A stretch of DNA of 64,000 nucleotides from Malassezia furfur (Eukaryota): NCBI GenBank assembly GCA_052055015.1, contig JBQJIT010000017.1. One strand, 5' to 3'. Positions 13,924 through 63,946 of the stretch are shown here, piece after piece. The stretch's first letter is position 1. Every line of letters begins with the position of its first letter. Below the pieces are notes generated by a model. It had not been told where the DNA came from and did not search any database. It saw only the letters and a list, made by a program, of their open reading frames with translations. The position numbers and the translations under genes were made by a program.

Positions 13924-15646
13924 CTATGGCGTGGTCTGTGCGTCGTCATCGAGCACCGGAGTGGGTGGAGGTGGAGTAAGCGCATACTGGTAGACATGCT
14001 GTGCGCAGCCAACCAGGAGCACAGGGGAGGCACTTGATGTGTCAGACGACCCCATGGGGAGCGAGTTGGCCCAGCACAATGCATGTACCTGTTCTGGAAA
14101 AACGATCTCCTCCAATTTTCGCGACTGGTGAGGAGGGACGGCAGGCTCAATGGAGGGAAGGCAGGGGTCGGCACGGTCAAGAGTCCACACGCGTACGCGA
14201 CAATCATCTCCAGCGCAGGCAACTAGGCCATGTGACGGATCTGTAGATACTCCCTGTATGTGAGTCACCATATACCTACCAAGTCAGAACGAAACTTGTT
14301 TTGATGGCCCTCGTAGATACACAGCGGCGCGTCTTGGAAACGTGTGACATCAAACCGGATCATCTGCGTCAGCGAGCTACCACGCACGTCTCCATTGGTA
14401 TACAGTGCAAGAAATTCAGCATTAGAAAGAAACTCCAAATGGTAAACGGCACCAGCAGAAACGAATGAGCATTGTTCACCCTCAGACGCGGGGGAAACAA
14501 GGGTGACATTCCCCCTTCGTCCGTCTTTAACGTGGAGAAAGTGGCGCACAACTTTCCCAGCACGAAGACCCGCCAAAAGGATCACTTTTCGGCTCTCTTG
14601 GTCAAAATTCATCGAGAGTGCCATCACGTCACTGGAAAGATGAATAGTATGATGATGCCAAGCATCGGAAGCAGCAAGATCAGGTTGAAGAATTTGCACC
14701 CTTTTTCCGACGCCTTTCGACGTAAGTATTGCCTTTTTTGTTTACGAACCCAATGCGAGGACGAGTGCGGTTGAGGACGACTCGGGCTCGATGCCTAGCT
14801 CCAAAACAGACAAACACCTTAAATCACGGTCCGCATATTTGCTCTTGTCGCTAAAGTTCAAGGCGATTTTGTCTTTGCTTGATGGGGTTGAATAGACACC
14901 AACATGCCAACGCGAATCAACAGAAGCTTCTCTAGGGTCAGCGAAAAAAGCATACATAAATAAACCAGAACGTTCTGCGGTAGCATACAGCGTAGGGTGG
15001 TGTGCGGTTGTGATTTTTACAGTTTCAACATCATTCGTAACCGATACCAGCGCGCGGTTGTGAAAGCATCCTTCCAATAAGCTGGATGGGTATTTTGTCA
15101 GATCGCAATTTTTGGCACTGGATGAGATGGACAATGCGTACATTATCGTGTCGGTTCCTGTGAATGCAACCGCCAATGGCTGGGTAGATCGTGTTTTGGA
15201 TGAAATTCGCTGATGTTAGCAATTGCTGCATACGAGAAAAGATGAAATGTTGCTTCGCTCCGCCAAGGAGTCCTTGAATGAGACGACGTGAGACAATTGT
15301 AATGAATGTGCAGCGATTCTTAATATGCGCCTGAAGTGTGGGTGAATAGACATACCTTTTGTAGCGAGTCTTGCGAAGCGAATGGTATGGATAAGCGTGA
15401 TCAAATAGGCTTTCTCGTTCAAAGGGTTTTGTCTCTGTAGAATCAGGCATCGACTTTGCATTGACTAAGGTTTTGGTGTGTCTCAAGTGTCCGTGCGTAG
15501 GTGTAGACAGACTGGGAGCCTGATTACTCTTAAAGAAGCGCTTTTTCCTGAAAACACATGTAAGTATTTATTCCGTGTATCTGTCTCCTGACGTACGCTG
15601 GATCCCAGCGGAATCCTGGCAAGTAGAACGGTGCCCGTTCATCCAT
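13924..15646 (-). CDS. DCAF4/WDR21-like WD40 protein (putative CUL4-DDB1 substrate receptor), multi-intron, low GC
   Basis: Spliced N-terminus MDERAPFYLPGFRWDPAKKRFFK matches the DCAF4-type LPGFYFDPEKxRYF motif; C-terminal YEGHQN and ACAGDDCRVRVW are WD-like. Internal exon boundaries only partly resolved. Confidence 0.65.
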
Positions 15647-15967
15647 GGTGAGATGGTCCGTGAGCCAGCAAAAATATTGACGCGATGGAGCGGGAAAATT
15701 AGGCCGAATTAATAATTACAGCGGAGCGGAGTCACGACTACGTCTGATAGTCGGGATCTACCTGTGTACATCTGGACCTACGCGAGAGTCAAGACGATCA
15801 GATACGATGCACACAGGGTGATACGCAGTAGCGGTTGTACCAGGATGTGATCCAATCCACAGTTCTCTATGCACGTAATGACTGCTACAGTTACAGATGA
15901 GAAGAAGAAAATGAAATAAGAAGCTGTACACTGATGTCGTTTCGTCTTCCGTGCTAAGTTGTGGGCA

Positions 15968-17564
15968 TTATTTGCCGTTGGCGGCTTGCATCTGTGGAGC
16001 GAGAATCCGCCTCCTAGCATTGACAAACTAACGGTTAGTAGAGACAAACATACCCAATTCGAAATCTGACAGATGTCTAACCCTGTGTATTCACAGAATT
16101 TGCGCTTTTCTTCTTCTGTCGGATAAGGATGATCCGCGTGATCAAGTAGCCATGATTTGAGCATGTCCGTAATCGGCTTGGGAAGTTTACCACCACGCTT
16201 TGGCTGTGACTCGGAAACTTGAGCACCATCGCTGTTCTTGTTTTTCGAGGCGCGGCCTTGAGTGGCACGGTTCAACATGGGTTGAGGTGTTGGGCTTTCA
16301 TGCGCACCCTCCTTGTGTTTCATGTACGCAAATGCGCCCGGCGAGTTCTTTGTACGCCCACCTGTCTCATAGGTAATGTCTTCGGGAGGTGGTGCAAGCA
16401 GATCTGTCTTCCGCCCAGGCCCGTACGATTCGTTCGATGAGCGCCGCCGCTNNNNNNNNNNNNNNNNNNNNNNNNNNNNNNNNNNNNNNNNNNNNNNNNN
16501 NNNNNNNNNNNNNNNNNNNNNNNNNNNNNNNNNNNNNNNNNNNNNNNNNNNTAGGGATGATATATTTCAGGAGCACGATGGGGCGAAATGGACGGCTCGA
16601 ACGGAGTACCCGAAGGCCCATACGAACAGTTCGATGGATAGGCCCAACCAGCTTTTGAATGGTTTCCATGGGAGCCACTCAGGTTAGAATAACGCGTATG
16701 ATCGTAGTCCTCGTCGGCGTAGTTGCCATACCACCGATATTCCGCGGAGGGCGGACGATGACGAGGATATGGACTCAGTCGATGAGACCCTGAGCTCTCA
16801 GGACGGTGCCAAGGACGGTATTCGCGGGGTTTGTTGAGCGCATAGCGTCCAAGATCGTCATTTCCGTGCGTGCCTTCTTGGCCCGTACCGCTCGTGCTGT
16901 ACGTCTCGGACCTGGATCGGAATCGTTTCGGAAGTGCACCATGACCAGAAGGTTCATGCTGATAACCCAATGGTTGACCGTACAGGGAATGTGCCATGCG
17001 GTCTCGCATCTTTATTTCCGGGTATACTTCGGGCCAAGACTGGGCGCGAGAATGATCTCGTGCAATTTGTTCAAGGACCGAGTACGGGATGAGTTTCCGA
17101 GGGAAATCATCGGGTCCTCCCGTCGCAAGAATACCGGGAATTCGAGGCCTGGGCGGTGATTCCTCTTGGGTCGGTGTCTTGTCATCCGCAAACACCTCTT
17201 CGGGTGTCGATGAGTCAATTTTGACCCGCACGGGCAAGGCGTCTGCTTCTCCCGAATGCACGGGATCTGAATGACTTGCTTGTGCTACACGCCCAATCGG
17301 CTTAAGATGGTCACTAGAACCGCGATCGGCGCCAGAAGCTGATGACGATCGATAGTCTCGTGGCCGAGGAAGCACGTGTTGGGACTCGAAGTCCGAATCG
17401 TATTCGGTGGTAAAAAAGGATGGCAATGAGTTGTCCTGTCCTTTCATAGCCTGTTCATGGCCATGTCTAGAAGAGGGAATGGACTCATACAGTCTTTCAG
17501 TTACAGATGGCGAGTTACGATCGCGAAGTGGGAGGTCGCCGGCCTCTCCTTTGGTGCCCGACAT
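15968..17564 (-). CDS. TALE-class (Cup9/Tos8-like) homeodomain transcription factor, interrupted by an assembly gap
   Basis: KRGGKLPKPITDMLKSWLLDHADHPYPTEEEK...QISNW|FVNARRRIL after removing a 26-nt intron (16028-16053). The frame is open on both sides of the N run, but continuity across it is assumed. Confidence 0.75.
16452..16551. other. Assembly gap (100 N, probably an unknown-length placeholder)
   Basis: Run of exactly 100 N. Confidence 0.99.
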
Positions 17565-18275
17565 GGATACCTCCCATCCACTCGCGTAGTTCGTGGACAA
17601 CAGTTGCCTGTGGGAACCAAGGAGAGACCGACTAAACCTTGAGCAGGACGGGAGCCCAGAGGCGGGTGGCGGAAATCGAGGAAACTTGGGGCCAGATCCT
17701 CTGTTTTCTTTAGATAGCACCTGTCGGGTATGTACGCATTTTATTCATTTAACAACAGGTCCGCGACACTCCACGTCGGCTGCTGCCGCGGCTGGGTGGG
17801 AATTCACGGGTTTTTCAACGCGTCTCAGACGGGGTGTTCAGGGCCAATAGTAGCGGGGTTTCAGATCGGAAATGAGCTACAGAATCGGCGGGATGTCATC
17901 TATGTCGTAACGTAGGTTTGCACGCGGCACGAAACGTGATCTCAATCGGTAAATATATGCAAAATGCCCAATCTCGTGCATGCATTCGATCATCGCTTGT
18001 ATTTATACGCTCGGAGACTTTTTTGATTGGTCGATAATACAACCGGGAAAGAGCTATATGCACGATAAAAGATTCACTTTTCACGCGTCCGTATAGGGGT
18101 CCTATTTTCCGACTAGTTTCCCCCAATTAAGCACCTATGAGATGCAAAGATTAGACCGAAAGCCTTGGCTGCAGAGATTGTGCGCAGCAAAATGGACACG
18201 CGAGCTTAACCCTTGATTTGACTGGTTTTCAAGAAACTGGATGTATAACACTTATGTTAGCTGCGCGCTCTGGTG

Positions 18276-21200
18276 TTAAACCTGCCGCGAACTCCGCCCC
18301 ACGCGAGCCGTCCTTGGTCCCGCACCCCGGAAAGAACCGGTTTTAGATGACGACACGTCGTTCTTCGTTTGAGTGGAGGTAGGTCGCCGCCCATTCGCAG
18401 CAAGCGGAATCGACGAGGTTTGCCCGGTGGCCCGCCTGCCATTTGTGTCAGAGGCAGTTACGTCGGGTCCGTGCGCCTGCTCCTCGCTGACAGCAGCACG
18501 TGTACGAGAAGCACGCGTTGCTGTAGTGGTCATGGAGCCCAGGTTGGATACAGCCACCCGAGCCGGCAGGCGTCTGCGCACAGGCACATATGGTTCCTTC
18601 TGTGGCACCGTTCGCGGCGCCATCCGAGTCGCCTGCGCTGCTTGTGTTTGCGCCCGTTGCGCCTGAGCCGCCGCGCGCCTAGGGCTCATCCGAACTGGCA
18701 CAGCGGCCTCTGCGCGTATTTTGGTCTGAGTCTCTTTTGGCATGCTTGTCGCTGTTTTAATGTCTTTCGTGGGAATAGATGCAGCAGAGGTAGTGCGCTG
18801 ACCATCGGTATTGTTTCCTGTCGGGTCCGCCACGGTCTCATTAGTAGTACGTTCCTTGAGATAGTTTGACTTGGGAGGCGACGTTCCCGTGGTGGTCTCA
18901 CGCTCGGTAGGATACAGATTGGGTGTCGCCGCAAGTGCAGACACAACGGGAGCCGAATACTTGTTTGCCGACTCAGTCTCGGGGGTCGCGATCATGTTTC
19001 CGGGAGTAACCGATGCCTCTTGCGGAGCGCCGCGGAGAAGGTTTCTGGGTTCTTCTTTCTTGCTCGCTTCAACCTTATTAGTCTCACCCATGTGATCATT
19101 TTCTTCACATGTCAAGAAGTTAGGTGGCACTCCAATATCGCTAGACTCATGCCCGGCCTGTGATGGAGGTAGTGAGACAGGTTCCTCGGAAACATCATGC
19201 CAAGGCCCGTCATGCTCCTCCGGTTCAGCCGTGAGAGTATTCCAAGCACTGGCCAGGCTAAAGTCGTTCTCAGAGGCCACGTCAGGTCGCATCATGTGAC
19301 GGAAGTCCGACATGTAAGACTCTGATGCCAGCCGAGGTGGCTCAGCAAACATGTGCTTCAGTCCTTGCATGTCAGGGGTCTGGCTACCGTTTGGCATCGT
19401 AGGCAGAGCTGGCGAGGTAGGCAATTGGTGCATCTCAGACAACTTCGTCAGGGAGATATCCGGCGTCGTACTGGACTCTTCGATGTCCATCGGTTCATAA
19501 GCATCGGAGTTGACCTCGTTTTCAACGTCGAAAAACTCGTCGTGCACCGGTGCTACATCGTTGGCCGTTGGTGCGGCGGATTTTGGTTCGAGAAGCTCCG
19601 ACACCTGTGCGCGGGAACTGTCCTTTTCCTCTTCGGAGGGCTGCACATCGGTCCGCCTTTCGTCTTTCGTGGTGGGCGACTTGAACAGGTCTCGGAGCCA
19701 TTGCCAAGAGGATCGAGACTTGAGCTTGGGAGTCGACGGCGCATCAGGGTTCGACATGCGCCGCAGCATACGTTGTTTAGGTTGCTGGGGTGTGAGGAAG
19801 TTGGTCAAGACCGGTGCACGCTCCTTTGGCTCTGGGGTCTTAGGGCGTTCAAATTCCGGCCCCGATCCTGAGGAACCTAAGCTCCTGTCAATCTCGTCTT
19901 CATCTTCGGACGAAGTGTCTGAATCACTCGAAGCATCACCCCCAAAGTCTCGCGTCATGTCCATGTCGCGCGACCCTGTAGAGATACGAGGTGCAACAGG
20001 AGACCGACCCATAGGGGCTGTATTCTGGTTTGCAGCACGCATTTCTGACAAGGGTACAAGTGGGTACTGGGCACTTCGTTTGAGAAGTGTCGCAGTGCGC
20101 AGACTCACCTTGCGGGACTTAGACGGAGTCCATTGAAGAGGTGGCGTTCTTGGCATGACAAACGGCAATGCCGATGACATGCGAACGTTGCTCGGCTGTG
20201 GCGATGATGGGGGGCCAGCAGAAGAGGGGTTCTTCTCATTCAACAAGTTGTCGGCAACCGCGGTCGCTTCCATATCGTCAAGATGCAAGGTTTGCACAGT
20301 GTCGTCTTCGCTTGGAGAGGGCGATTCCACGGCCAAGCTCAGCTCTGAGTCTTCTTGCTGAGATGGCACGAGATCGAGAGGTTTTGTTGGAGCGGTAGCG
20401 ACTTGTTCCACCGGACGATCAGGTTCATCGGAAGATACGGGGCGCGTGAGTTCTTCTGGATGGGACATAGCATCGGTGTCTTGCTCTTTTTCCTGCAGCT
20501 CAGGAAGATCGAGGGTCTGGGGAGATTCAACAGTTTCAACCTTGGCAGAAGTAGGGGAGCTTTCTTCGGCTTCGACGGGCTCGTAAGAGGACGCTCCAGA
20601 GGTTTCGGATACAGGCCCAGGTTCCCTTTCTTTCGCAGGCTTCGGTCCAAAAGGAAGATCATCGATGCTTGTGCTGAAATGGTCCGTGTTGCGAGCCGCA
20701 GCACTTGACTCGCCTGCGTGTTCATCTGCCGAATGCGCCGACGAGGTATTCACGCCTGCATCCATCTCGGTTGCTTTAAGATGAGTATTTGCCAAAGATT
20801 GTGCCTGAGGAGACATTGTACCCGTTTTCAGGCATGGGGAGCTGTACTTGGCCTTGAGCCGCGCGCTCTGGCGTCTTGGCGTGACGGGCGAATCTGCTTT
20901 GGTTTGACGACGACGGCTTGGAGTCGACCGCGATGGCGACAAAGTGGCCACCTCATTTGGCGACTTTAAAACCGACGACGGATATGTGAAGCTCAGAGTG
21001 TGCTTCGAGATCTGGAGTTTGTCTCCATCTGCTAAGTCGACCCGGTCGGACGATTCGTTGGGCTTCAGAAGCGACCCATTGAGCACAATCCCATTCGCCC
21101 CAAGAATGTGAAGCACAGCCTTGGTAAGTCATTGTATCCGTCCGTACCTTGGACTCCTCATTGAATTCAATACGGCAGTGCTCGCGACTCACATCTTCAA

Positions 21201-54283: not shown

Positions 54284-55921
54284 CTATGTAGTGGGATTAT
54301 TTGCGCCCTTGGTCGTGCTGGGCGCCTTGACGCGCGTCGGGGGGATGGGCATGGAGCCGGGGAACGGCACGCGCAGGTTCCAGTTGCGCTCGAGGTGCAG
54401 TTGGATGTCCTTGACCTCGAGGCGGTCACCCTTGCGGTGCTTGGCCAGGCGACACCCGAACGACGTCACGCTTTCGATAAACTCGTCGGCAATCTCGAGC
54501 AGCAGGTCCTCGACATCGCCCTCGAGCTGCTCGTTTGGGTCAATCTCACTGACCAGCTCCTGCACTTTGCGCTTCGTCAGCAGCCGGTTGTTGCCGCTCG
54601 CCGCACCGAGCCCAAACTGCGCCGCGGGGCCCGGACCCAGCACATCACCCAAGTTCGCGGCAAACCCGTCGCTGTCCAGGCTCAGATTCAGGCTCTCGTC
54701 TACCGCCGCACTGTCGCCCGCGCCGATGCCCAGCAGGTCCTCCCAGTGCTGACCGCCGCGGGGGGTATGTAGCGACTTGCCGTTGCGGCCCACCGGGTTC
54801 GGGCGGACCAGCACGGGCGGCGTCCCAGTCACCGGTGGCGTGCCGAGGCCCTGCGTCAAGGTCGGGTGCGGGCCGTGCGCGTTAGGGTACGGCTGCGGCG
54901 TCGAGGTATGTTGGGCGATCAGGTTCGCAAGCGCACCCGTCGACGATTGGGGCGTGCCGCCGCCCGTGGGCAGCAGCGACGAGGGCTGCGCAATGCCGGT
55001 AAGCGGAGTGCTTGACGACGCGCCACCCTGTGCATGCGAGCGCAGCGCCCCGGCCGTCTTCGACGAGGGCGTCTCAGGTGCCGCCTTGTTGCCGCCCGCG
55101 TCGGCGGCGAGCTTACCGGCGGCCTTGGCCGTGGATTGCGGCGTGCTTGGCGCATTGCTCGGCGTGCTTGGCCCCGGCGTGTGAGCCGCTTTGCCGCCCG
55201 ACGGCTGCGCCTGCATCGGCGGCGCCTGCGGCTGCGGCGCAGGCTGCGGCGCCTGAGGCTGCGGCGCCTGCTGCGCCTGCGACGGTTGTTGCTGTTGCTG
55301 CTGCTGTTGCTGCTGTTGCTGCTGCTGCTGCTTGTGCTGCTGGAGCAGCATCTGGTACTGCTGCTGGTCCTTGGCCCGCGCCTGCTCGCGAGCCAGAGCG
55401 ACCTGACGCGCCAGGCTCATTTGCTTCGTCTTTAACTCATTGTACAGGTTCTGCTGCTGTTGCTTCTCCTGCGCGGAGAGATTGGGGTTCCGCAGTGACG
55501 CCTCGAGGTGCGAGATGTTGAGCATGAGCGGCGACATGACCTTGTTGAACTGCTCCATCAACATCGCCTCGTGCTGCGGCATCTGCGCTTGCGGCACGGC
55601 GTTCTGCATCGGCTTCGGCTGCGCGGCAAACGAGCCCTGCTGTGCCGATCCCGCGGCGTCAGGGAACGTCTGGGGCATTGGGCGCTGCTGCACGTTTGGC
55701 TGGGTGGCCGCGCGCTGTTGCGACCCGAGGATCGCGCGGATCTGCTGCAGCTGCTCGGGGCTCACTTTGCCCTCGCGCGCCGCATTGACGATCGCCGTGA
55801 GCCCCTCTGGGTTGTTCGCAAGCAGCGGCTGCAGGCCCTGCATTGCGCTCGCGGGCAGGCCACCGCGGCCTGCCATGTTGGGCGGCACGCCGCCATTGCC
55901 TCCGGGGCCGTTGGAGCCCAT
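54284..55921 (-). CDS. TAF12: TFIID/SAGA subunit 12, Q-rich N-terminus and C-terminal histone fold
   Basis: RLLTKRKVQELVSEIDP..LLLEIADEFIESVTSFGCRLAKHRKGDRLEVKDIQLHLERNWNLRVP. Confidence 0.92.
   Translation of the reverse strand: MGSNGPGGNGGVPPNMAGRGGLPASAMQGLQPLLANNPEGLTAIVNAAREGKVSPEQLQQIRAILGSQQRAATQPNVQQRPMPQTFPDAAGSAQQGSFAAQPKPMQNAVPQAQMPQHEAMLMEQFNKVMSPLMLNISHLEASLRNPNLSAQEKQQQQNLYNELKTKQMSLARQVALAREQARAKDQQQYQMLLQQHKQQQQQQQQQQQQQQQPSQAQQAPQPQAPQPAPQPQAPPMQAQPSGGKAAHTPGPSTPSNAPSTPQSTAKAAGKLAADAGGNKAAPETPSSKTAGALRSHAQGGASSSTPLTGIAQPSSLLPTGGGTPQSSTGALANLIAQHTSTPQPYPNAHGPHPTLTQGLGTPPVTGTPPVLVRPNPVGRNGKSLHTPRGGQHWEDLLGIGAGDSAAVDESLNLSLDSDGFAANLGDVLGPGPAAQFGLGAASGNNRLLTKRKVQELVSEIDPNEQLEGDVEDLLLEIADEFIESVTSFGCRLAKHRKGDRLEVKDIQLHLERNWNLRVPFPGSMPIPPTRVKAPSTTKGANNPTT
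55284..55340 (-). repeat. CAG/CAA microsatellite encoding polyQ in TAF12
   Basis: (tgc/tgt)n run on the + strand. Confidence 0.9.
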
Positions 55922-55942
55922 CGTGGTCGTGGCAATGAAAAG

Positions 55943-55950
55943 CACGTGAC
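55943..55950. promoter_or_regulatory. CACGTGAC E-box in the 56-bp TAF12/MTQ2 divergent promoter
   Basis: Motif seen directly in the intergenic spacer. Confidence 0.6.
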
Positions 55951-55977
55951 ACCCGCGTCGCGTCGCGCACGGCCAGC

Positions 55978-56672
55978 ATGCTGCCGACGCCGGACATCGC
56001 GCATGTGCGCCGCACGTACGGCGACGAGGTGTACGATCCGGCGGAGGACACATTTGCGCTCATGGATGCACTGGAGCAGGATGCACCGGGGCTTCAGAAC
56101 ACGTCGCTGTGCGTCGAAATCGGCAGTGGCAGTGGGTGCGTGTCGACGTTCGTAGCGCAGCTCGTGGGACCGCACGCCGCGTACGTGTGCACCGATATCA
56201 ACCCGGCAGCTACGCTGTGCACACGCGAGACGGCGGAGCGCAACCATGTGGCGCTTGACGTTGTACGTGCGTCGACTCTCGACGGCCTGCGGCTTACAGG
56301 GCTCGTAGATCTGTTGCTGTTCAATCCACCGTACGTCGTCACCAGCGACGAGGAAGAGGCCGCGGCGCAGGCGCATGCAGCTCTTGCCGGCGCGTGGGCA
56401 GGCGGCACGTACGGAACTGCGCTGCTCCAGCGCATGATCGACGATGGCGTCTTTGAGGTACGTCGTCCTCAGCTCTCACGCAGCGCACTTTGCGATCTGG
56501 CGGACGCCTGTATGTGGTGACGATCAAGCAAAACGACCCAGAGGAGCTCGTGCGCCAGCTCGCCGCGCACGGCTTTGATGCCGACGTACGTACACTGCTC
56601 CTTACCCAGATCGTGCTGCGCCGCCGCGCAAATCGTGAATGGCTACATATCCTACGTGCAATCAAGTCTTAA
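55978..56672 (+). CDS. MTQ2: HemK-family eRF1 glutamine methyltransferase (N6AMT1), 2 introns
   Basis: MLPTP..EVYDPAEDTFALMDALE, EIGSGSG, LLFNPPYV, WAGG. Confidence 0.92.
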
Positions 56673-58648
56673 GCCATGCGCCACAGCTTCGCACACACAT
56701 CTGCTGTCGCATCCGTCTCCTCCGTCGGGAACGCGTAGTGCCGCAGCCGCTTGCGCGTCTCGCGGCGCACCGCCTGCTCGGCCGTCGCCGACTTCGTCGG
56801 CAGCATCGCAGGTACCTGCAGCGTGACGTCCAGCGGCTCGGTCGCCGGCGGCGCGCGCGGCTTCGCGCGCTCCTTGTGCTGCAACGTCTTACGCGCCTCG
56901 GTGTCAAAGAGCGTGCCGTAGGTCGTGTCGAGGAACTCCTCGAGGTTGTATTTTTGTTGCGTAAAAGGCTCCGCGAGAATGCTCGCAAACGTCGTCACCG
57001 AGCCGAGATAGTGCGTATCGCCGCCGGCCTCCAGCGCGCGCTGCTGCTGGTTCTGGCTAAGACGGTACGCGCCAAACGCCGCAATCTCCCACAGTGAGCT
57101 CTCAAGTGCACCCGTGTGCAGCGGATTGGGCTCTTGCGCGTCAAACGGATCCTCGACACCGGTCGGACCGAGCGCCAGGTGATCGCCATCCCATTCGCGG
57201 TGGATCATCGGCATGCAGCTGGGGTGCCGGCGCAGCAAATTCCACACAAACGGCACAATCTCGACAATCGCTGCGGGCGTCGCACGCAGCGACAGCCGGC
57301 TCAGCCGCTTCAGGAAGGACGCAACGATGGCGACGGGCAGGTGTGTCGAGCTCAGGAATGTGTCGAGCATGCGCATGAAGCGCGAGCGGTATTTGGTATG
57401 CATCACCGATGCATCCAGCAGGCCATAAAGCCGCGTGTAGAACGCGGGGTAGTCGAGGTTGTGCGACACAATCAGCGTAAACAGGCCGTTGAGCGCCAGC
57501 AGCGCCGTCGTTCCGCGCGCGTCCAAGCAGTCCACGAGGAAATCGTGTAACATCGTCGGTTTGGGCAAGTGCGGCAGGATCTGGGTGTGCAGGCGCACCA
57601 GGATATCATGCGTCTCGGCAAGCGAGAGCGAGCCGCCATGGACGACCAGCGTACCGGACGCGTCGGTATGCGATGCAGGGAGCAGCAGACTCAGCCATGC
57701 GCCAGCGAATGCCTGGCGCTGCGCCGCAAGACCGTGCATCGACTCACGTAGCGTCTTGGTGCGCCGCGCACGGCGGCCCCGGCCGGCCGGCACCTCGGCT
57801 ACCTCGTCGTCGTCGCTGTCGGACGCCTGAGCGAGCACCTCCTTCATGTCCTCGTCCTCGTCACTCCCCGCACCGTCCTCGCCAAATTTGGGCTTCTTTT
57901 GTGTCTTGCTCTTCTTCTTGGGCGGGGCTTTGGCGAGGTGCGGTACCAAAAAGTTGTTTAAGTGGTCGTCTTGCGTTGGGATTGCCGTGATCCGCACCAG
58001 CCACGTACGTGCGCGCGAACGGATATGCGCATGACGTGCAGATGCATCAGGGATCGCACGCAGGACGCGGATGAGTTCCCGACAAAACTCAAAGCGCACG
58101 TCGTCATAGATTTCGAGATACGACTCGGCGAACGCATCAACAACGTCGTCGGCCACCTCGCGGAAGAGCAGCGTGCGAACGAGCAGCCGGAACGGCGTAA
58201 TAGACCACTTCCCAGCATCGCAGGCCAGGGCCTCGGACGCGGCCACCTGGAGCGACATGGTGACCTCGAGTGCGGCAAGGCGCACCGACGATACCGGTGA
58301 CACCAGCAACGTCTCGAGCACAAACTGTACGTACGCATTCCACTGCTCCTTCATCCAGCGCGCGACCTGCGCGCGCGGTTCATCGCTTGCCTCACCAAGC
58401 ATAAGCAGGCCGACGTCCGTGACGTGTGCTACGTCTAGCGCACCAGACGCACACAACGCCACGAGACTCTGCGACAAGACGCGTACGGCGAGGGTCAGCG
58501 CCTTGAGATTGTCCTTGTCTTGTGTCTTCAATAGCTCACCATGAAGTTTCCGAGCAAGCTCCAAAAGCTCGACGATCGGATTCAGGTCCGTGGACGCGGC
58601 GAGCTGCCCCTGGATCGCCTTGACGCGCTCCAACGGTGCCGCTCCCAT
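56669..58648 (-). CDS. NOC4: Nucleolar complex protein 4 (CBF/Mak21 domain)
   Basis: YDDVRF, LLALNGLFTLIVSHNLDYPAFYTRLYGLL, FLSSTHLPVAIVASFLKRLSRL, ALESSLWEI, YNLEEFLDTTY. Confidence 0.93.
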   Translation of the reverse strand: MGAAPLERVKAIQGQLAASTDLNPIVELLELARKLHGELLKTQDKDNLKALTLAVRVLSQSLVALCASGALDVAHVTDVGLLMLGEASDEPRAQVARWMKEQWNAYVQFVLETLLVSPVSSVRLAALEVTMSLQVAASEALACDAGKWSITPFRLLVRTLLFREVADDVVDAFAESYLEIYDDVRFEFCRELIRVLRAIPDASARHAHIRSRARTWLVRITAIPTQDDHLNNFLVPHLAKAPPKKKSKTQKKPKFGEDGAGSDEDEDMKEVLAQASDSDDDEVAEVPAGRGRRARRTKTLRESMHGLAAQRQAFAGAWLSLLLPASHTDASGTLVVHGGSLSLAETHDILVRLHTQILPHLPKPTMLHDFLVDCLDARGTTALLALNGLFTLIVSHNLDYPAFYTRLYGLLDASVMHTKYRSRFMRMLDTFLSSTHLPVAIVASFLKRLSRLSLRATPAAIVEIVPFVWNLLRRHPSCMPMIHREWDGDHLALGPTGVEDPFDAQEPNPLHTGALESSLWEIAAFGAYRLSQNQQQRALEAGGDTHYLGSVTTFASILAEPFTQQKYNLEEFLDTTYGTLFDTEARKTLQHKERAKPRAPPATEPLDVTLQVPAMLPTKSATAEQAVRRETRKRLRHYAFPTEETDATADVCAKLWRMA

Positions 58649-58705
58649 CGTGGCTGAGAAAAAAAGAGCCGCCTCCACTCCCATCTTCTTGTCGCCCTCC
58701 ACACA

Positions 58706-60613
58706 ATGCACTGGCGCACCGTAGTGTGGGGTGCGCTCGTGCTCGCGTATGCTGCAGCGCGCGCGACGCTGCCAGATGCGCAATTATCCCATGAGGGTAT
58801 CTATATCAACTTGCCGGCAACATCTTCGCTCAGGATATATATGGAACCTGCCGAACTCGAATTGGAAAATGCAACTGTATCAATTAGTGCGCTGCGCACG
58901 CGCTCCGCCGACCAGGTCGAACTGTGCAAGCAGGGCCAACTACGCTCGATTGAGGCGTGCAGTGCAACCGATCTCTTTACAACACATGAATTCACACCTG
59001 TGTTCACCATACAACACGAGGATCTGCAGCCTGATCAGGGCGTGTCTTTATCCCACCTATGGGCATCGGCCAACGGCAGCCTAGCGGCGCTCGTACATCC
59101 TGAACCCCATGGGGTCTTACGCAGCGTGATAATAAAACTGCGTACGAACAGCCGACACGGAGTACGTACTCGCTTTTGGTGGCTTGGCAACCTGGTCCCC
59201 GAGCGCGGCCTGTGGCCGATCGCCGCGTCCGATGTTGCATCGCGCGACGGGCAGCCAGTCAATGGCAGTGCTTTGGATATCCCCTGGGACGGGCGTGCCG
59301 TGCGGATAAGTGGTACGATGCAAGACCCATTTCTACCTCGCTCGCGCCAGCGGGCGTACATGCGAGACAGCTCGTGGGCCCGCGGTGTGACCATACGCAC
59401 GCGCACGGGCGGAGACCCTGTCCCGCTCTACTCGCCTACGAATGGTACTGTGGTGTGGAGCGCACCCTACGTGCATGTGCGTCCGCCCCACACAGGTGCT
59501 CATGCGGGCGAGAACAACGAGGAGGACTGGTGCGTGATGATCCAGGATGCCTGGGGCACCGTCTTCCAGCTGTTTGGCCTCCAGCGCGGACACGCAACAG
59601 TACGAGTGGGCGAGCGGGTGCGGGCTGGCCAAAACATTGGCATTGCACATCAAACGCAGCTTAGCCAGATGCCGCCCAGCACCGAAGCGCCCGCTGACCC
59701 GCCCAAATCCTACGAAATTCAACGGTTTTTGCCATACCCCTATCGTTTCCGCCGGCTCGAGGTGCGCGTCGGGCGCACATCATGTATCCGCCCCGGTGAC
59801 GCATGTTTTGCGCCAGACGCACCGTGGGATTACTACCCCCCGCAGTTTGTGCTCCGCAAACGCGATGAGCCGTCGGCGATCCCGCCGATGGTCGAGCCCC
59901 ACCGCATCTACTTTGCGCCGGCGGCCGCCTCGCCACTCGACCACGTCCCTCTTGCGGCGCCGAAAAGTGCCCTGGCGCACCCATTGCCCTTGTCTGGGCG
60001 TGTGGATGTACTGAGTACGCTGGTGTCGTTTGAGTCGACGCCCGGACACCTTGACGATGCGATGGACCCTCTAGCCTTGTATGCCCTTGAATGGGCCGTC
60101 GTCCCGCAAAGTGCGCAGCCAGTGTGCGAGCAAACCAATGTGTATTGGCGAAAGTCCTTTGAGCACAACCGCCTGCCGAATCCAAACAACGCCAACCTCG
60201 ACGATCCCGCGTTCCTCCAGGCGCACTACGTCCCCACGGTGGTGGTTGCCAGCGTCGCCGGACACGCCTTCCGTGCGCAGATCAAGAGCCAATTTGACGA
60301 AAAGGAGCGTGCCCTGGTCTACGCGCTGAGCCGGACACGGGGCGGTAGGCCACACATTGAGGGGGCCTGGGACATTACGCGCGAGCCAACGCGCGGTGTG
60401 CACCAAGTGGCCATCCGTGCATGGGACATGAGCGGAAATGCAGTGTGCACGGAAACCACCGTTCTCCTCACCGACGTCGTGACACCGCGCCCCAACTTAT
60501 GGCAGAGCCGCGAGTGGCACACGGCGGTGCTCGACTCGGCGCTACTTGGGCTGCCGCAGGCGGCAGCGACGCTATTGATGGGCGTAGCGCAGTTGCTTTG
60601 GGTCCTTTTGTAG
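58706..60613 (+). CDS. Intronless secreted, C-terminally anchored protein with a degenerate M23/LytM-like domain and an Ig-like module
   Basis: Signal peptide; LWPI...ISGTM...RGVTI..PVPLYSPTNGTVV...VMIQDAWG..FGL..VRVGERVRAGQNIG...RLEVRV; WDITRE..GVHQVAIRAWDMSGN; hydrophobic C-terminus. Confidence 0.6.
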   Translation: MHWRTVVWGALVLAYAAARATLPDAQLSHEGIYINLPATSSLRIYMEPAELELENATVSISALRTRSADQVELCKQGQLRSIEACSATDLFTTHEFTPVFTIQHEDLQPDQGVSLSHLWASANGSLAALVHPEPHGVLRSVIIKLRTNSRHGVRTRFWWLGNLVPERGLWPIAASDVASRDGQPVNGSALDIPWDGRAVRISGTMQDPFLPRSRQRAYMRDSSWARGVTIRTRTGGDPVPLYSPTNGTVVWSAPYVHVRPPHTGAHAGENNEEDWCVMIQDAWGTVFQLFGLQRGHATVRVGERVRAGQNIGIAHQTQLSQMPPSTEAPADPPKSYEIQRFLPYPYRFRRLEVRVGRTSCIRPGDACFAPDAPWDYYPPQFVLRKRDEPSAIPPMVEPHRIYFAPAAASPLDHVPLAAPKSALAHPLPLSGRVDVLSTLVSFESTPGHLDDAMDPLALYALEWAVVPQSAQPVCEQTNVYWRKSFEHNRLPNPNNANLDDPAFLQAHYVPTVVVASVAGHAFRAQIKSQFDEKERALVYALSRTRGGRPHIEGAWDITREPTRGVHQVAIRAWDMSGNAVCTETTVLLTDVVTPRPNLWQSREWHTAVLDSALLGLPQAAATLLMGVAQLLWVLL

Positions 60614-62293
60614 CTATGACACATACGAACGGAGCGCGTACAGCAGCACACGACCCCGGCTGTTGCCGATCGCCATGTACCGGCTCTCGGACGAGAAGTC
60701 GAGCGCAGTAACATGCCCGAGCGGCGTGCCCGCCGTCGGCCAGTTGGAGTAGGTCTGCAACGTGGGCACATGCACCATGCGCAAAGCGTCCTTCTTGTTG
60801 CGCGACGCAATCGCAAGCAGCTGCGCGTCGTGGCTGAATCGCATCGAGGTGATCGCCGTCGTTAGATTGCCGAGCGCGCGCCGCGACTTGAGCTGCACGT
60901 CGTCGGTGACCGGCGCAGCGACGGGAGTGTCGACAAGCCCATCAAGCGTCGCGCTCGTCGTCACGCGGTCGTCGGTGCCGCCATACACATTTACCACACC
61001 GCTAGTCGACCCCACCGCCCACGCCGACGGCACGAGCGACGACGAGGCACACTCAAGGCCCTTGGCGCCAAACAGCCCGGGATCGAATGCCGTCACGGGG
61101 CACGCGCGGTTGCGCACATCCCACACATGCACGCGACCCTCGGTGGAGAGCGTCAGCAGCCGCGGCGTGGAGGTGGAGGGCGCCCAGGTCATGCCGGCGA
61201 GCGGCGCATTCATGCGCAGCTCGCCGATGCGCTGTCCGCCGCCGTTGGCGGTCACACCGCCGGCACCCCAGTCAACCAGATGGACTTGCCCGCGGCGCCC
61301 ACCGATCGCAACGAGGCGCGCGTCCGCACCCGGCTCGAATCGCACAAAGCTCAGGTCGCGCTCGGCACCCGCATCGACTTCCGTGCCACCAGCACTCGAC
61401 ACCACCTTACCTGCGCCACGCCATGGCGATGAGCGAATGGTCTTACCGGAACGAATGTCGTATGCGTACAGGTACGGGCGGTTGCCGGCGATCAGCACCG
61501 AGTGACCAGAGGGGTGGAACTGTGCTGTCTTAATTGGCAAATCGGGCACATGCAGTGTCTCAAGTAGCGGATTGGTGCTCCCGTTGATTTGGAACAGGCG
61601 CACACGCCGATCGCGCGAGGCTGTAAGAAGGACATGCGAGCGTGCGCTAGGGTGGAATGCAATGTGTTCGATTGCCGCAGGCTCCTCGGCACGTTCCTGC
61701 GCCTCGTTTGCGTCACGCAGGCGCTCCACGTCAAGACGGTCGGGCGTCAAACGTCGGGTCACGCCGCGGCTCACGAGGCCCGACTCGGCACTGAGCAGGT
61801 CACTGAGCAGGGGCGCACTCCATGCGCTGCTCTCGCCCATGCTGGGAGCCACAGATGCCCAGGCCGGCCGCGGATGCATGCGCTCGTACTGCCGGCGCAA
61901 ACGCCGCTGGTACTCGGCACCGCTGATCACCTGCTCACTAGGGTTGGTGCGCAGTTTACGAAGTTTTTTGACGCCGCGCATACTGCCGTCGGGTGCGCGC
62001 GCACCAGCACCCGCAAGCGGCACCATGATCTGCTCATCGTCCGCGTCAGTCCATGCGGCATGTGGTTGGTCAGATGTGGCTGTCGCCGCGGGTGCGTCGG
62101 TGCTTCCGGGGACGTCAACGTCGACGTCGAGCGCAAACAGCTGCCGGTGAGTGGGCGGGAGACGTACGTCTTGGTCCTGGGCCTCCTGTAGGGTATCCTC
62201 GTCTTCACGCTTCCGCGTGACGCCGGCGCCGCCAAACAGGCGCTGCGCCAAGCGCTGCTCTTCGGTGCGCTCTGCGCCGTGCGCGTCTCCCAT
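60614..62293 (-). CDS. UTP18: U3 snoRNP/SSU processome WD40 protein
   Basis: AAWTDADDE, LRKLR..ISGAEYQRRLRRQYERMHPRPAWA, ERLRDAN, LRMVHVPTLQTYSNWPTAGTPLGHV, GNSRGRV; probable 27-nt intron at 62141-62167. Confidence 0.93.
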   Translation of the reverse strand: MGDAHGAERTEEQRLAQRLFGGAGVTRKREDEDTLQEAQDQDVRLPPTHRQLFALDVDVDVPGSTDAPAATATSDQPHAAWTDADDEQIMVPLAGAGARAPDGSMRGVKKLRKLRTNPSEQVISGAEYQRRLRRQYERMHPRPAWASVAPSMGESSAWSAPLLSDLLSAESGLVSRGVTRRLTPDRLDVERLRDANEAQERAEEPAAIEHIAFHPSARSHVLLTASRDRRVRLFQINGSTNPLLETLHVPDLPIKTAQFHPSGHSVLIAGNRPYLYAYDIRSGKTIRSSPWRGAGKVVSSAGGTEVDAGAERDLSFVRFEPGADARLVAIGGRRGQVHLVDWGAGGVTANGGGQRIGELRMNAPLAGMTWAPSTSTPRLLTLSTEGRVHVWDVRNRACPVTAFDPGLFGAKGLECASSSLVPSAWAVGSTSGVVNVYGGTDDRVTTSATLDGLVDTPVAAPVTDDVQLKSRRALGNLTTAITSMRFSHDAQLLAIASRNKKDALRMVHVPTLQTYSNWPTAGTPLGHVTALDFSSESRYMAIGNSRGRVLLYALRSYVS

Positions 62294-62319
62294 GGCGTCG
62301 AGGGAGAACTTTTTTCCTG

Positions 62320-62327
62320 CACGTGAC
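62320..62327. promoter_or_regulatory. CACGTGAC E-box next to a T-tract in the 58-bp UTP18/HEM3 divergent promoter
   Basis: Motif seen directly in the intergenic spacer. Confidence 0.6.
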
Positions 62328-62351
62328 GATCGATTCGAAGCTGCGACGTCG

Positions 62352-63946
62352 ATGGCGGAGATCCACGCGCAGGAGCCGCCGGCCTGCCCGGTGCCGCACG
62401 CCAGGGAGCAGCCGCTTCCGCCAGGACACCCACCCGTGCCTGATGCGGCACCCAGCTCGTTGCAGCCGCCGACGGGACCGCACTGCATTTTTTTCCGCCA
62501 GCCGGAGGACAAGCTCGACGCGCCGGAAAACGTTGCGAACGACGTGCCGGAATCGGACCCGAGCGCGGAGGCTGTCGCGGATGTCGTGCAGGATATCGTG
62601 CCTGCAGAATACCTGCTGGTGCTCGCTAGCCGCACGAGCAAGCTCGCTGTACGTCAGGCCGAGCAGGTACAGCACATGCTCGAGGTGCGCTTTGGTGCAT
62701 CATCGCCGGCGTTTGCCGACCCGGTGCCCGAGGACGTGCGTGAGGAGGTCGCAGCAATCCACGAGCGTTTACGTGCGCTAGATGGCCCTGATGCGCCGCT
62801 GCGTCCATTTGCGTTCCCTGCGCGCACGATGCAGACGGGCGGAGATCTGAATCTGCGCTCACCTTTGTACGTGATCGGCGGCGAGGGCCGCGCGATCTGG
62901 ACGAAGGAGCTCGAGGTTGCACTGCTAGCCGGTGGTGTGGATGCGATCGTGCACAGCTTGAAAGACGTGCCCACGACGCTGCCCACCAACCTCGAGCTCG
63001 CGGCGATTCTTGAGCGCGAAGATCCGCGCGATGCGCTCGTTGTCAAGGCTGGCCTTCCGTACGCGTCACTCGAGGAGATGCCGCCTGGTTCAGTGATTGG
63101 TACATCGTCGGTGCGCCGCGTCGCGCTGCTGCGCCGTGCTTACCCCCATTTGATGTTTAGCGATGTGGTATGTCTTGGAAGCTAACGCAGCGCGGCAATA
63201 TCCACACCCGGCTCGCGAAACTCGATGCCGAAAATGGACCCTATACGGCGCTTGTGCTTGCCGCCGCAGGGCTCAAGCGTATGCAGCTCGCTACGCGTAT
63301 TACCGCATACCTCACTGCACCTGTTATGCTGCACGCCGTCGGCCAAGGCTCGCTTGGTATCGAAATCCGGTCACCAAACGGTTCACCGCGTGATGCGCGC
63401 GTCAAGGCGCTCATCGCGAGCATCGCCGACTGGCGCGCGACGTGGCGCTGCAGTGCGGAGCGGGCACTGCTGCACCGCATGGAGGGAGGTTGCTCCATTC
63501 CGCTCGGCGTTGCATCGTGGTTTGACGACCACCACGAGGTCGAAGTGACGCGTAACGAGCCGCTGGCCACGCCCGCACAGCTCGCGGCCGAAGGCAAGCC
63601 CGTCAGTGCGCCGGTCGATCTGCGTTTCTCGACGCCGCCGCCAGACGGCCAGGTGCTGACGCTGCGTGCGGTGATCGTGTCGTTGGACGGCACGCGCAGC
63701 TGTGAGTACGAGGCATCAGCGCTGTGCAAGTCGGTGGACGATGCCGTGGCGCTAGGGATACAGGTTGCCGACGACCTTGAGCACCGCCAGGGTGCTCGTG
63801 AGATTCTTGAGGAGGTCGAGCACCACCGCCGCCTCGCCGAGCAGGCGGACGAGGCGCAGCGGCAAAAGCAGCAAGTACCCGCACAGGAGCAGGACCGGCG
63901 GTTTGTGCCGCGCACGGACGGACAGCCCAAGGTATGGGAAGTGTAG
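62352..63946 (+). CDS. HEM3: Porphobilinogen deaminase with an N-terminal extension (1 intron, 63168-63190)
   Basis: ASRTSKLAVRQA, WTKELEVAL, IVHSLKDVPT, REDPRDA, GTSSVRR, DV|RGNIHTRLAKLD, HAVGQGSLGIE, EGGCSIP. Confidence 0.95.

Follow-up and report, generated by a model that had tools for sequence, protein, structure and literature searches.

The closest described systems for comparison are the degenerate LytM factors of bacteria (EnvC, NlpD, DipM, SpoIIQ and Csd2). In the review PMC9662197 these factors are described as acting outside the cytoplasm and working by binding, and for most of the degenerate LytM domains known so far the ligand is a protein. The same review presents vertebrate LECT2 as the sole mammalian M23 member, in which the active centre carries an additional loop and a catalytic His is missing. 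LECT2 binds zinc, as stated in the abstract of PMC8039541.

The gene analysed here lies in a stretch of 64,000 nucleotides of Malassezia furfur (contig JBQJIT010000017.1), referred to as the window. The encoded protein is probably a non-catalytic binding protein of the secretory pathway with a degenerate LytM fold, and belongs in all likelihood to an old family inherited vertically within the Ustilaginomycotina. The features of the gene are listed in the table. A preliminary description of this DNA had proposed an intronless frame of 635 codons. This frame runs uninterrupted from ATG to stop and is colinear with its orthologues. The lack of introns is plausible because orthologues of 616–635 aa can be aligned with the 635-aa Malassezia protein from end to end.

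Table. Features of the gene and of the encoded protein, in positions of the window.
Feature	Position	Strand	Basis
Complete CDS, 635 aa and TAG stop	58706..60613	+	ATG-to-stop frame; full-length orthologues
Signal-peptide-like N-terminus, residues 1–20	58706..58765	+	Hydrophobic stretch; modelled helix 3–19; putative cleavage after ARA
N-terminal domain, residues 22–165, mixed β/α (model)	58769..59200	+	pLDDT mostly 84–96
Degenerate LytM/M23-fold domain (predicted), residues ~166–387	59201..59866	+	VIA, Foldseek, Pfam, hhalign
Former HxxxD zinc motif, now A225-R-G-V-T229	59378..59392	+	hhalign to MepM H-R-G-V-D
G291 at the catalytic His position, ~30 residues before HxH	59576..59578	+	hhalign
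Strand P345-Y-R-F-R-R-L-E-V-R-V355 replacing the HxH strand	59738..59770	+	Putative register; no His in 316–398; modelled strand 350–357
Single Fn3/Ig-like β-sandwich with long loops (predicted), residues 388–595	59867..60490	+	Domain model, VIA
C-terminal tail, residues 596–635: low-confidence linker and hydrophobic helix 603–634	60491..60610	+	Hydropathy, model

The AlphaFold2 model of the 635-aa protein has a pLDDT of 86.0 and a pTM of 0.84, and in this model the central domain is an M23/LytM fold. In VIA, model residues ~164–387 match the 45 best entries with Z-scores of 8.7–12.6 over ~115–158 aligned residues. These entries are M23/LytM proteins by title where the fold is named there; those with titles that do not name the fold are presumably M23/LytM proteins as well. 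The match to the LytM domain of EnvC (8c0j_B) has a Z-score of 12.4 and an r.m.s. deviation of 2.3 over 124 aligned residues. The Z-scores for LytM (2b13_A), SpoIIQ (3tuf_B) and lysostaphin (4qpb_B) are 11.6, 11.6 and 11.3, respectively. The fold match ends at residues 383–391, and the next fold classes after M23/LytM reach Z-scores of 7.3 at most. Foldseek gives a probability of 1.00 against M23 entries. The M23-type fold suggested earlier for this region is thus borne out by the structure check.

Pfam reports PF01551 as the sole family for the protein at E ≤ 10, with a score of 21.1 bits that lies under the curated threshold of 28.7. Sixteen of the 26 fungal relatives match PF01551 at E ≤ 1, with 2.6e-4 as the lowest E-value. 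The family profile matches 5gt1_A at E 0.001; the title of this entry names no fold, and the entry is also matched in VIA (Z 11.2). Alignment with MepM/EnvC/NlpD by hhalign yields an E-value of 7.8e-5, and 28 of 30 Atlas feature matches are M23 clusters, with a weak score of 0.90. No NCBIfam family was found for the protein at E ≤ 1, and phmmer with the single sequence gave no match among the PDB sequences at E ≤ 10. Pfam and hhalign independently align residues 226–321 to M23, which covers the blocks RGVTI, PVPLYSPTNGTVV, VMIQDAWGTVFQLFGL and VRVGERVRAGQNIG. As the structural match spans residues ~164–387, LWPI (169–172) and RRLEVRV (349–355) are covered too. The M23 order of motifs given in the preliminary description holds.

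The bacterial degenerate LytM factors have the LytM core fold in common with the fungal protein (Z 11.5–12.4) and, like it, have lost the zinc-binding and catalytic residues. The motifs of E. coli EnvC are likewise devoid of the H, D and HxH residues. In contrast to these factors, the fungal protein occurs in an organism that itself has no peptidoglycan, shows neither a coiled coil nor a LysM accessory domain (Pfam) and has no known amidase partner. It has its own N-terminal domain, a predicted Fn3-like C-terminal domain and two family-specific loops in the LytM-fold domain (~255–272 and 315–346). The active M23 peptidases (LytM, lysostaphin, MepM, ShyA, Csd3 and StM23) show the common fold (Z 11–12.6) and the same order of blocks, whereas the fungal protein lacks H(x)nD, the catalytic His and HxH, and its Pfam score is below threshold. 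LECT2 is similar as a eukaryotic, secreted non-peptidase with an M23 fold (5b0h_A, Z 10.2, r.m.s. deviation 2.8, 124 aligned residues). However, LECT2 consists of one 16-kDa domain, compared with three in the fungal protein, which is also devoid of the zinc ligands. The likeness shown between the two is one of fold.

When 1.84 billion representatives were searched exhaustively with phmmer, 40 matches at E ≤ 0.001 were obtained. Among the 32 of these 40 that were checked, ten carry an organism name, and all ten belong to the Ustilaginomycotina. Orthologues are present in eight genera, namely Malassezia and the plant-associated Ustilago, Tilletia, Exobasidium, Violaceomyces, Ceraceosorus, Jaminaea and Microstroma. 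A word-indexed homologue search with a 26-sequence profile returned just the same eight Malassezia proteins. In a quick maximum-likelihood tree, midpoint-rooted for drawing only, the Malassezia clade (support 99) is separated from the remaining members (99), and Ustilago and Violaceomyces are paired (98). Judged from these sequences, the family looks old and vertically inherited within the Ustilaginomycotina. A link to life on skin, as envisaged in the preliminary description, is not supported, given the plant-associated members and a tree that matches taxonomy. With vertical inheritance in this subphylum, the role of the protein would be general for the lineage and not an adaptation to skin. 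Vertical orthologues across the fungi with no bacterial sister clade had been named as the pattern opposed to a bacterial origin. This pattern is seen in part: inheritance looks vertical inside a single subphylum, and neither phmmer (E ≤ 0.001) nor the pattern scan revealed a bacterial sister clade, but members of the family did not turn up in the fungi at large.

In structural alignments the protein is only 13–23% identical to bacterial LytM domains, which is too low for a reliable tree with these domains. There is no named bacterial protein among the 40 phmmer matches. In 185,579 prokaryotic species genomes, scanned for patterns from an 8-sequence alignment, there were 37 pattern matches and no confirmed relative. 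The whole-family profile, searched against the E. coli K-12 chromosome, yielded no candidates, a result that is uninformative. It is rather unlikely that the ancestor of the Ustilaginomycotina received a bacterial LytM-type gene long ago and put it to new use, as a surface or secreted protein that binds peptidoglycan or interacts with bacteria. A single acquisition would explain the patchy distribution well, with relatives found in one fungal subphylum only, and the fungi concerned share plant surfaces and skin with bacteria. Besides the low identity and the missing bacterial sister group, the GC dip of the gene is mild, and peptidoglycan binding would be at odds with the predominance of protein binders among the known degenerate LytM domains (PMC9662197).

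A more far-reaching version, which is equally doubtful, regards the proteins as the first fungal M23/LytM-fold family, acquired once from bacteria by the ancestor of the Ustilaginomycotina and acting as a non-catalytic extracellular hub or sensor. If this were true, stem peptides of bacterial peptidoglycan would be what the protein senses where fungi and bacteria live together, on the leaf surface or on skin. Alternatively, fungal wall-remodelling enzymes would be controlled as EnvC controls amidases.

The reading of the protein as an old, non-catalytic member of a vertical lineage includes the loss of the active site. The hhalign profile alignment with E. coli MepM puts A225 and T229 in the places of H and D in the first zinc motif, and G291 in that of the upstream catalytic His. 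The latter position is Gly in 25 of 26 members. None of the members has His in the H column (0/25, one row gapped) or Asp in the D column (0/26). The hhalign alignment is reliable only for residues 226–321. The HxH strand was never aligned reliably, either in global or low-threshold mode or with or without the C-terminal extension of MepM, and its register is putative. Residues 316–398 contain no His, and in the last core strand stray His residues occur only singly, in 3 of 26 relatives. All five canonical catalytic and zinc positions are replaced in the M. furfur protein, and the three alignable ones are replaced in each member that is not gapped at the column. The replacement of the zinc ligands of HxxxD and HxH, noted previously, is confirmed (A225/T229, and no His in 316–398), and G291 is found at the catalytic His position. 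The proposed inactive, EnvC-type form is confirmed as well: the M23 fold lacks the complete catalytic set, and the same losses are seen in all 26 members examined.

With the zinc ligands and both catalytic histidines lost, the LytM-fold domain would be unable to act as a metallopeptidase. A hydrolase with a non-canonical active site is very improbable, although basic residues are located on the former HxH strand (R347 in 22/26, R/K at 349 in 23/26) and D281 is nearly invariant: none of the five canonical positions is retained in the M. furfur protein, and M23 enzymes that function in their absence are not known (PMC9662197).

Most likely, the protein functions by analogy as a non-catalytic extracellular binding module. 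This role is suggested because EnvC, NlpD, SpoIIQ, DipM, Csd2 and vertebrate LECT2 have analogous degenerate M23 folds; for such folds a binding role is described in PMC9662197. The protein would enter the secretory pathway and expose three packed extracellular domains, followed by a hydrophobic C-terminal tail. The predicted order is N-terminal domain, degenerate LytM/M23-fold domain and Fn3/Ig-like β-sandwich. The LytM-fold domain would work by binding, with a peptide-like ligand or a partner protein held in the putative vestigial substrate groove. The site of action may be the cell surface or the wall, where the protein is possibly tethered.

The low GC content of the 5′ part, which had been counted by hand, is close to the computed values of 46.7% (58801–58860) and 48.3% (58981–59040), but it does not serve as evidence for transfer. 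The GC content is 55.6% in the first 495 nt of the gene versus 62.4% in the window, and 61.3% in the whole gene. Among all 300-nt windows, 6.4% have a GC content of 53% or less, a count that is slightly high since a gap of 100 N (16452–16551) was scored as non-GC. The dip is mild and no composition outlier; it lies within the normal spread of the window and is thus rejected as a transfer signal. A recent horizontal transfer from skin bacteria to Malassezia, in favour of which only the lower GC content of the first ~500 nt can be cited, is effectively excluded, because the gene tree is congruent with taxonomy and all named relatives are Ustilaginomycotina, with orthologues in eight genera, no bacterial phmmer match at E ≤ 0.001, housekeeping genes on both sides and an inconspicuous GC content of the gene as a whole.

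The family is undescribed, old and common to Malassezia, the smut fungi and their yeast relatives. Among the papers listed, the literature search found nothing that links peptidase M23/LytM to Malassezia, Ustilago, Ustilaginomycotina or Basidiomycota, no horizontal transfer of a LytM domain to fungi or eukaryotes and no match to the locus tags of five orthologues. The main text of a preprint on horizontal gene transfer in Malassezia (10.1101/2020.01.28.923367) contains none of the terms 'M23', 'peptidase' and 'endopeptidase'; the gene could still be among its 30 candidates (Dataset S5). In UniRef, five orthologues (from M. psittaci, Tilletia horrida, Ustilago bromivora, Ustilago hordei and Ceraceosorus guamensis) already have an entry with the automatic name 'Peptidase M23 domain-containing protein', which is among the points that limit the weight of the finding. 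A conserved, presumably secreted three-domain family with a LytM fold spans a whole fungal subphylum that holds the dominant human skin yeast genus as well as the cereal smuts. Degenerate M23 folds thereby have a wider range than was known, and anyone studying contact between fungi and bacteria, or the regulation of the fungal wall, has a defined candidate in this protein.

The domains flanking the LytM fold are less easily assigned. The N-terminal domain (residues 22–165) has no Pfam match, and the Atlas search gave no usable match for it. C74, E83 and C85 of this domain are nearly invariant, the two cysteines across 26 family members, and C474 is invariant in eight Malassezia sequences. The protein contains four N-x-S/T sites. 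These sites and the cysteines, together with the hydrophobic N-termini of the family, speak for entry into the secretory pathway.

For residues 388–595 a separate domain model was obtained with a pLDDT of 83 and a pTM of 0.82. The best VIA Z-scores are 8.0 (6tn6_A), 7.8 (PorU) and 7.0, with the background stated as 7–8. Below these, many Fn3, Ig and CBM domains follow at background level (Z 6.1–6.7). Each match comprises ~90–120 aligned residues spanning the whole region. Foldseek gave no match for this region at E ≤ 0.001. As modelled, the region is generically supported as one Fn3/Ig-like β-sandwich and corresponds to no specific bacterial Ig family. Thus, the Ig-like character proposed for the tail is retained in generic form and at background-level Z-scores, but its bacterial (Big) type is not, since neither a Big nor an Fn3 family is matched in Pfam at E ≤ 10.

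The signal-like N-terminus and the hydrophobic C-terminus of the earlier description are both present. The stretch from M1 to ~A20 is hydrophobic, as in nearly all full-length relatives, and the last 20 residues have a mean Kyte-Doolittle value of 1.68 and zero charge. Strong hydrophobicity of the C-terminal tail is limited to the four closest sequences. More distant members of the Malassezia clade that keep the tail have 2–4 charges in it, and the tail is absent from the entries of M. vespertilionis, M. psittaci and M. yamatoensis and from all non-Malassezia members. As it is absent or charged in many relatives, tethering to the surface is no feature of the family. A GPI-anchored wall protein would be expected to have a conserved omega site of small residues next to its hydrophobic C-terminus. 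The M. furfur protein has a D-S-A triplet ahead of the tail, but the corresponding residues differ in relatives that are 54–61% identical.

Structure comparison of a predicted model settles the M23 (LytM) fold that the preliminary description had assigned to the middle of the 635-residue protein. The supporting sequence matches are weak but consistent. Pfam PF01551 aligns with residues 226–321 (E = 3.6e-4) and, with 21.1 bits, does not reach the curated cut-off of 28.7 bits. At E ≤ 1 it is found in five of eight Malassezia orthologues and in 16 of the 26 family members (the query protein and its homologues). The next commonest weak Pfam matches are barrel-sandwich hybrid families, namely RnfC_N (five members) and Biotin_lipoyl_2 (two). 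A search of the PDB with the 26-sequence profile gave chain 5gt1_A (E = 0.001).

The template-free AlphaFold2 model, calculated from the 26-sequence alignment, has a mean pLDDT of 86.0 and a pTM of 0.84. With this model, Foldseek assigns many M23 entries a probability of 1.00, among them 6jmy, Csd3, SpoIIQ, ShyA, DipM and StM23. The lowest E-value belongs to a multi-sandwich alpha-2-macroglobulin, with a probability of only 0.80. The top 45 entries of VIA-align superimpose on model residues ~164–387 with Z-scores of 8.7–12.6, and all of them, by title or else by what the entry is known to be, are M23 peptidases or LytM-domain proteins. Among them are StM23 (Z 12.6), LytM (11.6), SpoIIQ (11.6), lysostaphin (11.3), human LECT2 (10.2) and the LytM domain of EnvC (Z 12.4, rmsd 2.3, 124 of 131 residues aligned). 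This group is followed by PorU at Z 7.3, which fits another region of the model, and by IIA-Glc domains at Z 6.7–6.9. In an Atlas feature search with residues 160–392, M23 clusters make up 28 of 30 matches; their score of 0.90 is weak by the tool's own scale.

The zinc ligands had been described as replaced. Family residues 160–395 were aligned to a reference profile of E. coli MepM (active), EnvC and NlpD (both degenerate), and hhalign matched residues 226–321 (E = 7.8e-5, probability 61.5%). The H-R-G-V-D motif of MepM aligns to A225-R-G-V-T229 and the catalytic His of its Y-M-H motif to G291. In the family, the first of these columns holds His in none of 25 sequences (one of the 26 rows is gapped), the Asp column holds Asp in none of 26, and the catalytic His is replaced by Gly (25/26) or Arg (1/26). 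Profile methods gave no trustworthy alignment of the HxH strand; the E-V-R register of the general M23 pattern would presumably put HxH at F348 and R350. The conclusion of inactivity is independent of this register, since His is absent from residues 316–398 of the query and the structural match ends at 383–391. Among the relatives, isolated His residues turn up in this strand just three times. The defining motifs and their roles follow the available text of a review (PMC9662197). As the motif columns are empty of His and Asp throughout, the replacement extends beyond the query and the entire family is a degenerate M23 fold, in which the catalytic residues were lost before the members diverged.

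The family represents a known fold in a fungal form, a three-domain, fully degenerate LytM protein. No description of it was found in the open-access literature, where most subscription journals are missing. The automatic UniRef name 'Peptidase M23 domain-containing protein' is already attached to five orthologue entries.

Forty matches at E ≤ 0.001 were obtained when 1.84 billion representative proteins were searched exhaustively with phmmer. Source names were examined for 32 of these, and an organism is given for ten of the 32 clusters: Malassezia vespertilionis, Malassezia sp., Exobasidium, Violaceomyces, Tilletia, Ustilago, Ceraceosorus, Jaminaea (twice) and Microstroma. M. psittaci and M. 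yamatoensis are two further sources named among the relatives. All named genera are Ustilaginomycotina; six of the eight were confirmed in a taxonomy database, and Ustilago is a member of that group. A tree of 25 sequences from a fast maximum-likelihood search sets the Malassezia clade (SH-aLRT 99) against the rest (99), with a midpoint root for drawing only. Ustilago and Violaceomyces are joined with a support of 98, in agreement with their shared class. Malassezia was placed in the Ustilaginomycotina after a published abstract. None of the 37 matches from a pattern scan of 185,579 prokaryotic species, one genome each, was confirmed as a relative.

As considered in the preliminary description, the gene may have been transferred long ago; entry into the ancestor of the Ustilaginomycotina would fit both the restricted range of the family and the overwhelmingly bacterial occurrence of the fold (97% of InterPro entries, according to the available text of PMC9662197). 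Identity of the query to bacterial M23 domains in structural alignments is only 13–23%. A recent transfer on skin is excluded by the range across the Ustilaginomycotina, the tree, the lack of a prokaryotic relative in the scan and the ordinary housekeeping genes (CBF/Mak21-family and WD40) that flank the gene.

The protein has a secretory-type N-terminus, three domains that pack well in the model and a LytM core that has lost its catalytic residues. By analogy, the protein would work extracellularly, through binding. This mode is described for EnvC and NlpD (amidase activation), SpoIIQ, DipM, Csd2 and LECT2 in the available text of PMC9662197, and the same is proposed for the fungal protein. 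The former groove would be edged by two family-specific, confidently modelled loops (~255–272 and ~315–346), the latter with a conserved P-P-A-D-P-P. The former HxH strand has conserved basic residues (R347 in 22/26, R or K at 349 in 23/26). Because the family is common to plant- and skin-associated fungi, a skin-specific ligand is rated below two other candidates, a partner from the fungus's own wall or secretory pathway and a wall peptide of bacteria in general.

Residues 388–595, folded alone (pLDDT 83.0, pTM 0.82), align as a single beta-sandwich. Between 90 and 120 residues, spread over the whole region, match single Fn3, Ig-like or carbohydrate-binding-type domains, so the proposed Ig-like tail is probably correct as a generic fold; no evidence points to a bacterial Ig family. 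The best matches are a mannanase C-terminal domain (Z 8.0), PorU (7.8) and BT3049 (7.0), followed by many Fn3 domains (6.1–6.7). Only one of 48,161 chains has Z ≥ 8, which is background level according to the tool, and Foldseek gave no match at E ≤ 0.001. The N-terminal domain (22–165) is confidently modelled within the full-length model and has no Pfam or Atlas match. Of the seven cysteines of the query, which also has four N-x-S/T sites, C74 and C85 are almost invariant in the 26-sequence alignment.

Both hydrophobic termini noted earlier are present by hydropathy. The signal-like N-terminus forms a helix (3–19) in the model, and the final 20 residues have a Kyte-Doolittle mean of 1.68 and no charge. 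Strong hydrophobicity of the tail is confined to the query and the three sequences closest to it; more distant tailed sequences of the Malassezia clade carry 2–4 charges. No such tail is present in the entries from M. vespertilionis, M. psittaci and M. yamatoensis or in any non-Malassezia member. A GPI or membrane anchor may exist in the query's lineage and is not a family-wide trait. The deposited models of the M. psittaci (P0006, 579 aa) and M. yamatoensis (P0007, 560 aa) orthologues stop within the C-terminal beta-sandwich, and the latter also lacks the signal-like segment. This shortening is probably gene-model truncation and no real difference.

The open reading frame was confirmed. Orthologues (616–635 aa) align end to end with the query, so the intronless gene model is reasonable. 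By Pfam, all four surrounding genes have ordinary housekeeping functions.

Coordinates of the gene and its neighbours
Feature	Position	Strand	Basis and arrangement
ORF, 635 codons	ATG 58706 to TAG 60611-60613	+	reading frame
CBF/Mak21 family gene	56669-58684	-	Pfam; upstream neighbour, divergent
WD40 beta-propeller gene	60614..62488	-	Pfam; downstream neighbour, convergent
TFIID 20-kDa subunit domain gene	54284-56053		Pfam
Porphobilinogen deaminase gene	62292-63185		Pfam

The 47–48% GC counted by hand in two 60-nt stretches of the 5' part proved nearly exact (46.7% and 48.3%). The first 495 nt have 55.6% GC compared to 62.4% for the window, and the whole gene has 61.3%. Values of ≤53% occur in 6.4% of all 300-nt windows, a slightly high figure with the 100-N gap at 16452–16551 taken as non-GC. 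GC3 is 0.68, compared to 0.72–0.83 in five neighbouring ORFs. The 5' drop is mild and no signature of foreign DNA. Elsewhere, a low-GC stretch (14200–18300; ~47% at 14.2–16.3 kb and 17.8–18.3 kb, compared to 62% for the window) encloses the assembly gap.

The start codons of the gene and the CBF/Mak21 ORF are separated by 21 nt. This spacing makes separate conventional promoters impossible, unless translation of the CBF/Mak21 ORF begins further in, at Met 13, or transcripts originate within the neighbour. At the other end, the stop codons of the gene and the WD40 gene adjoin as TAGCTA (60611–60616) with no spacer, so the 3' UTRs must run into the coding sequence of the neighbour.
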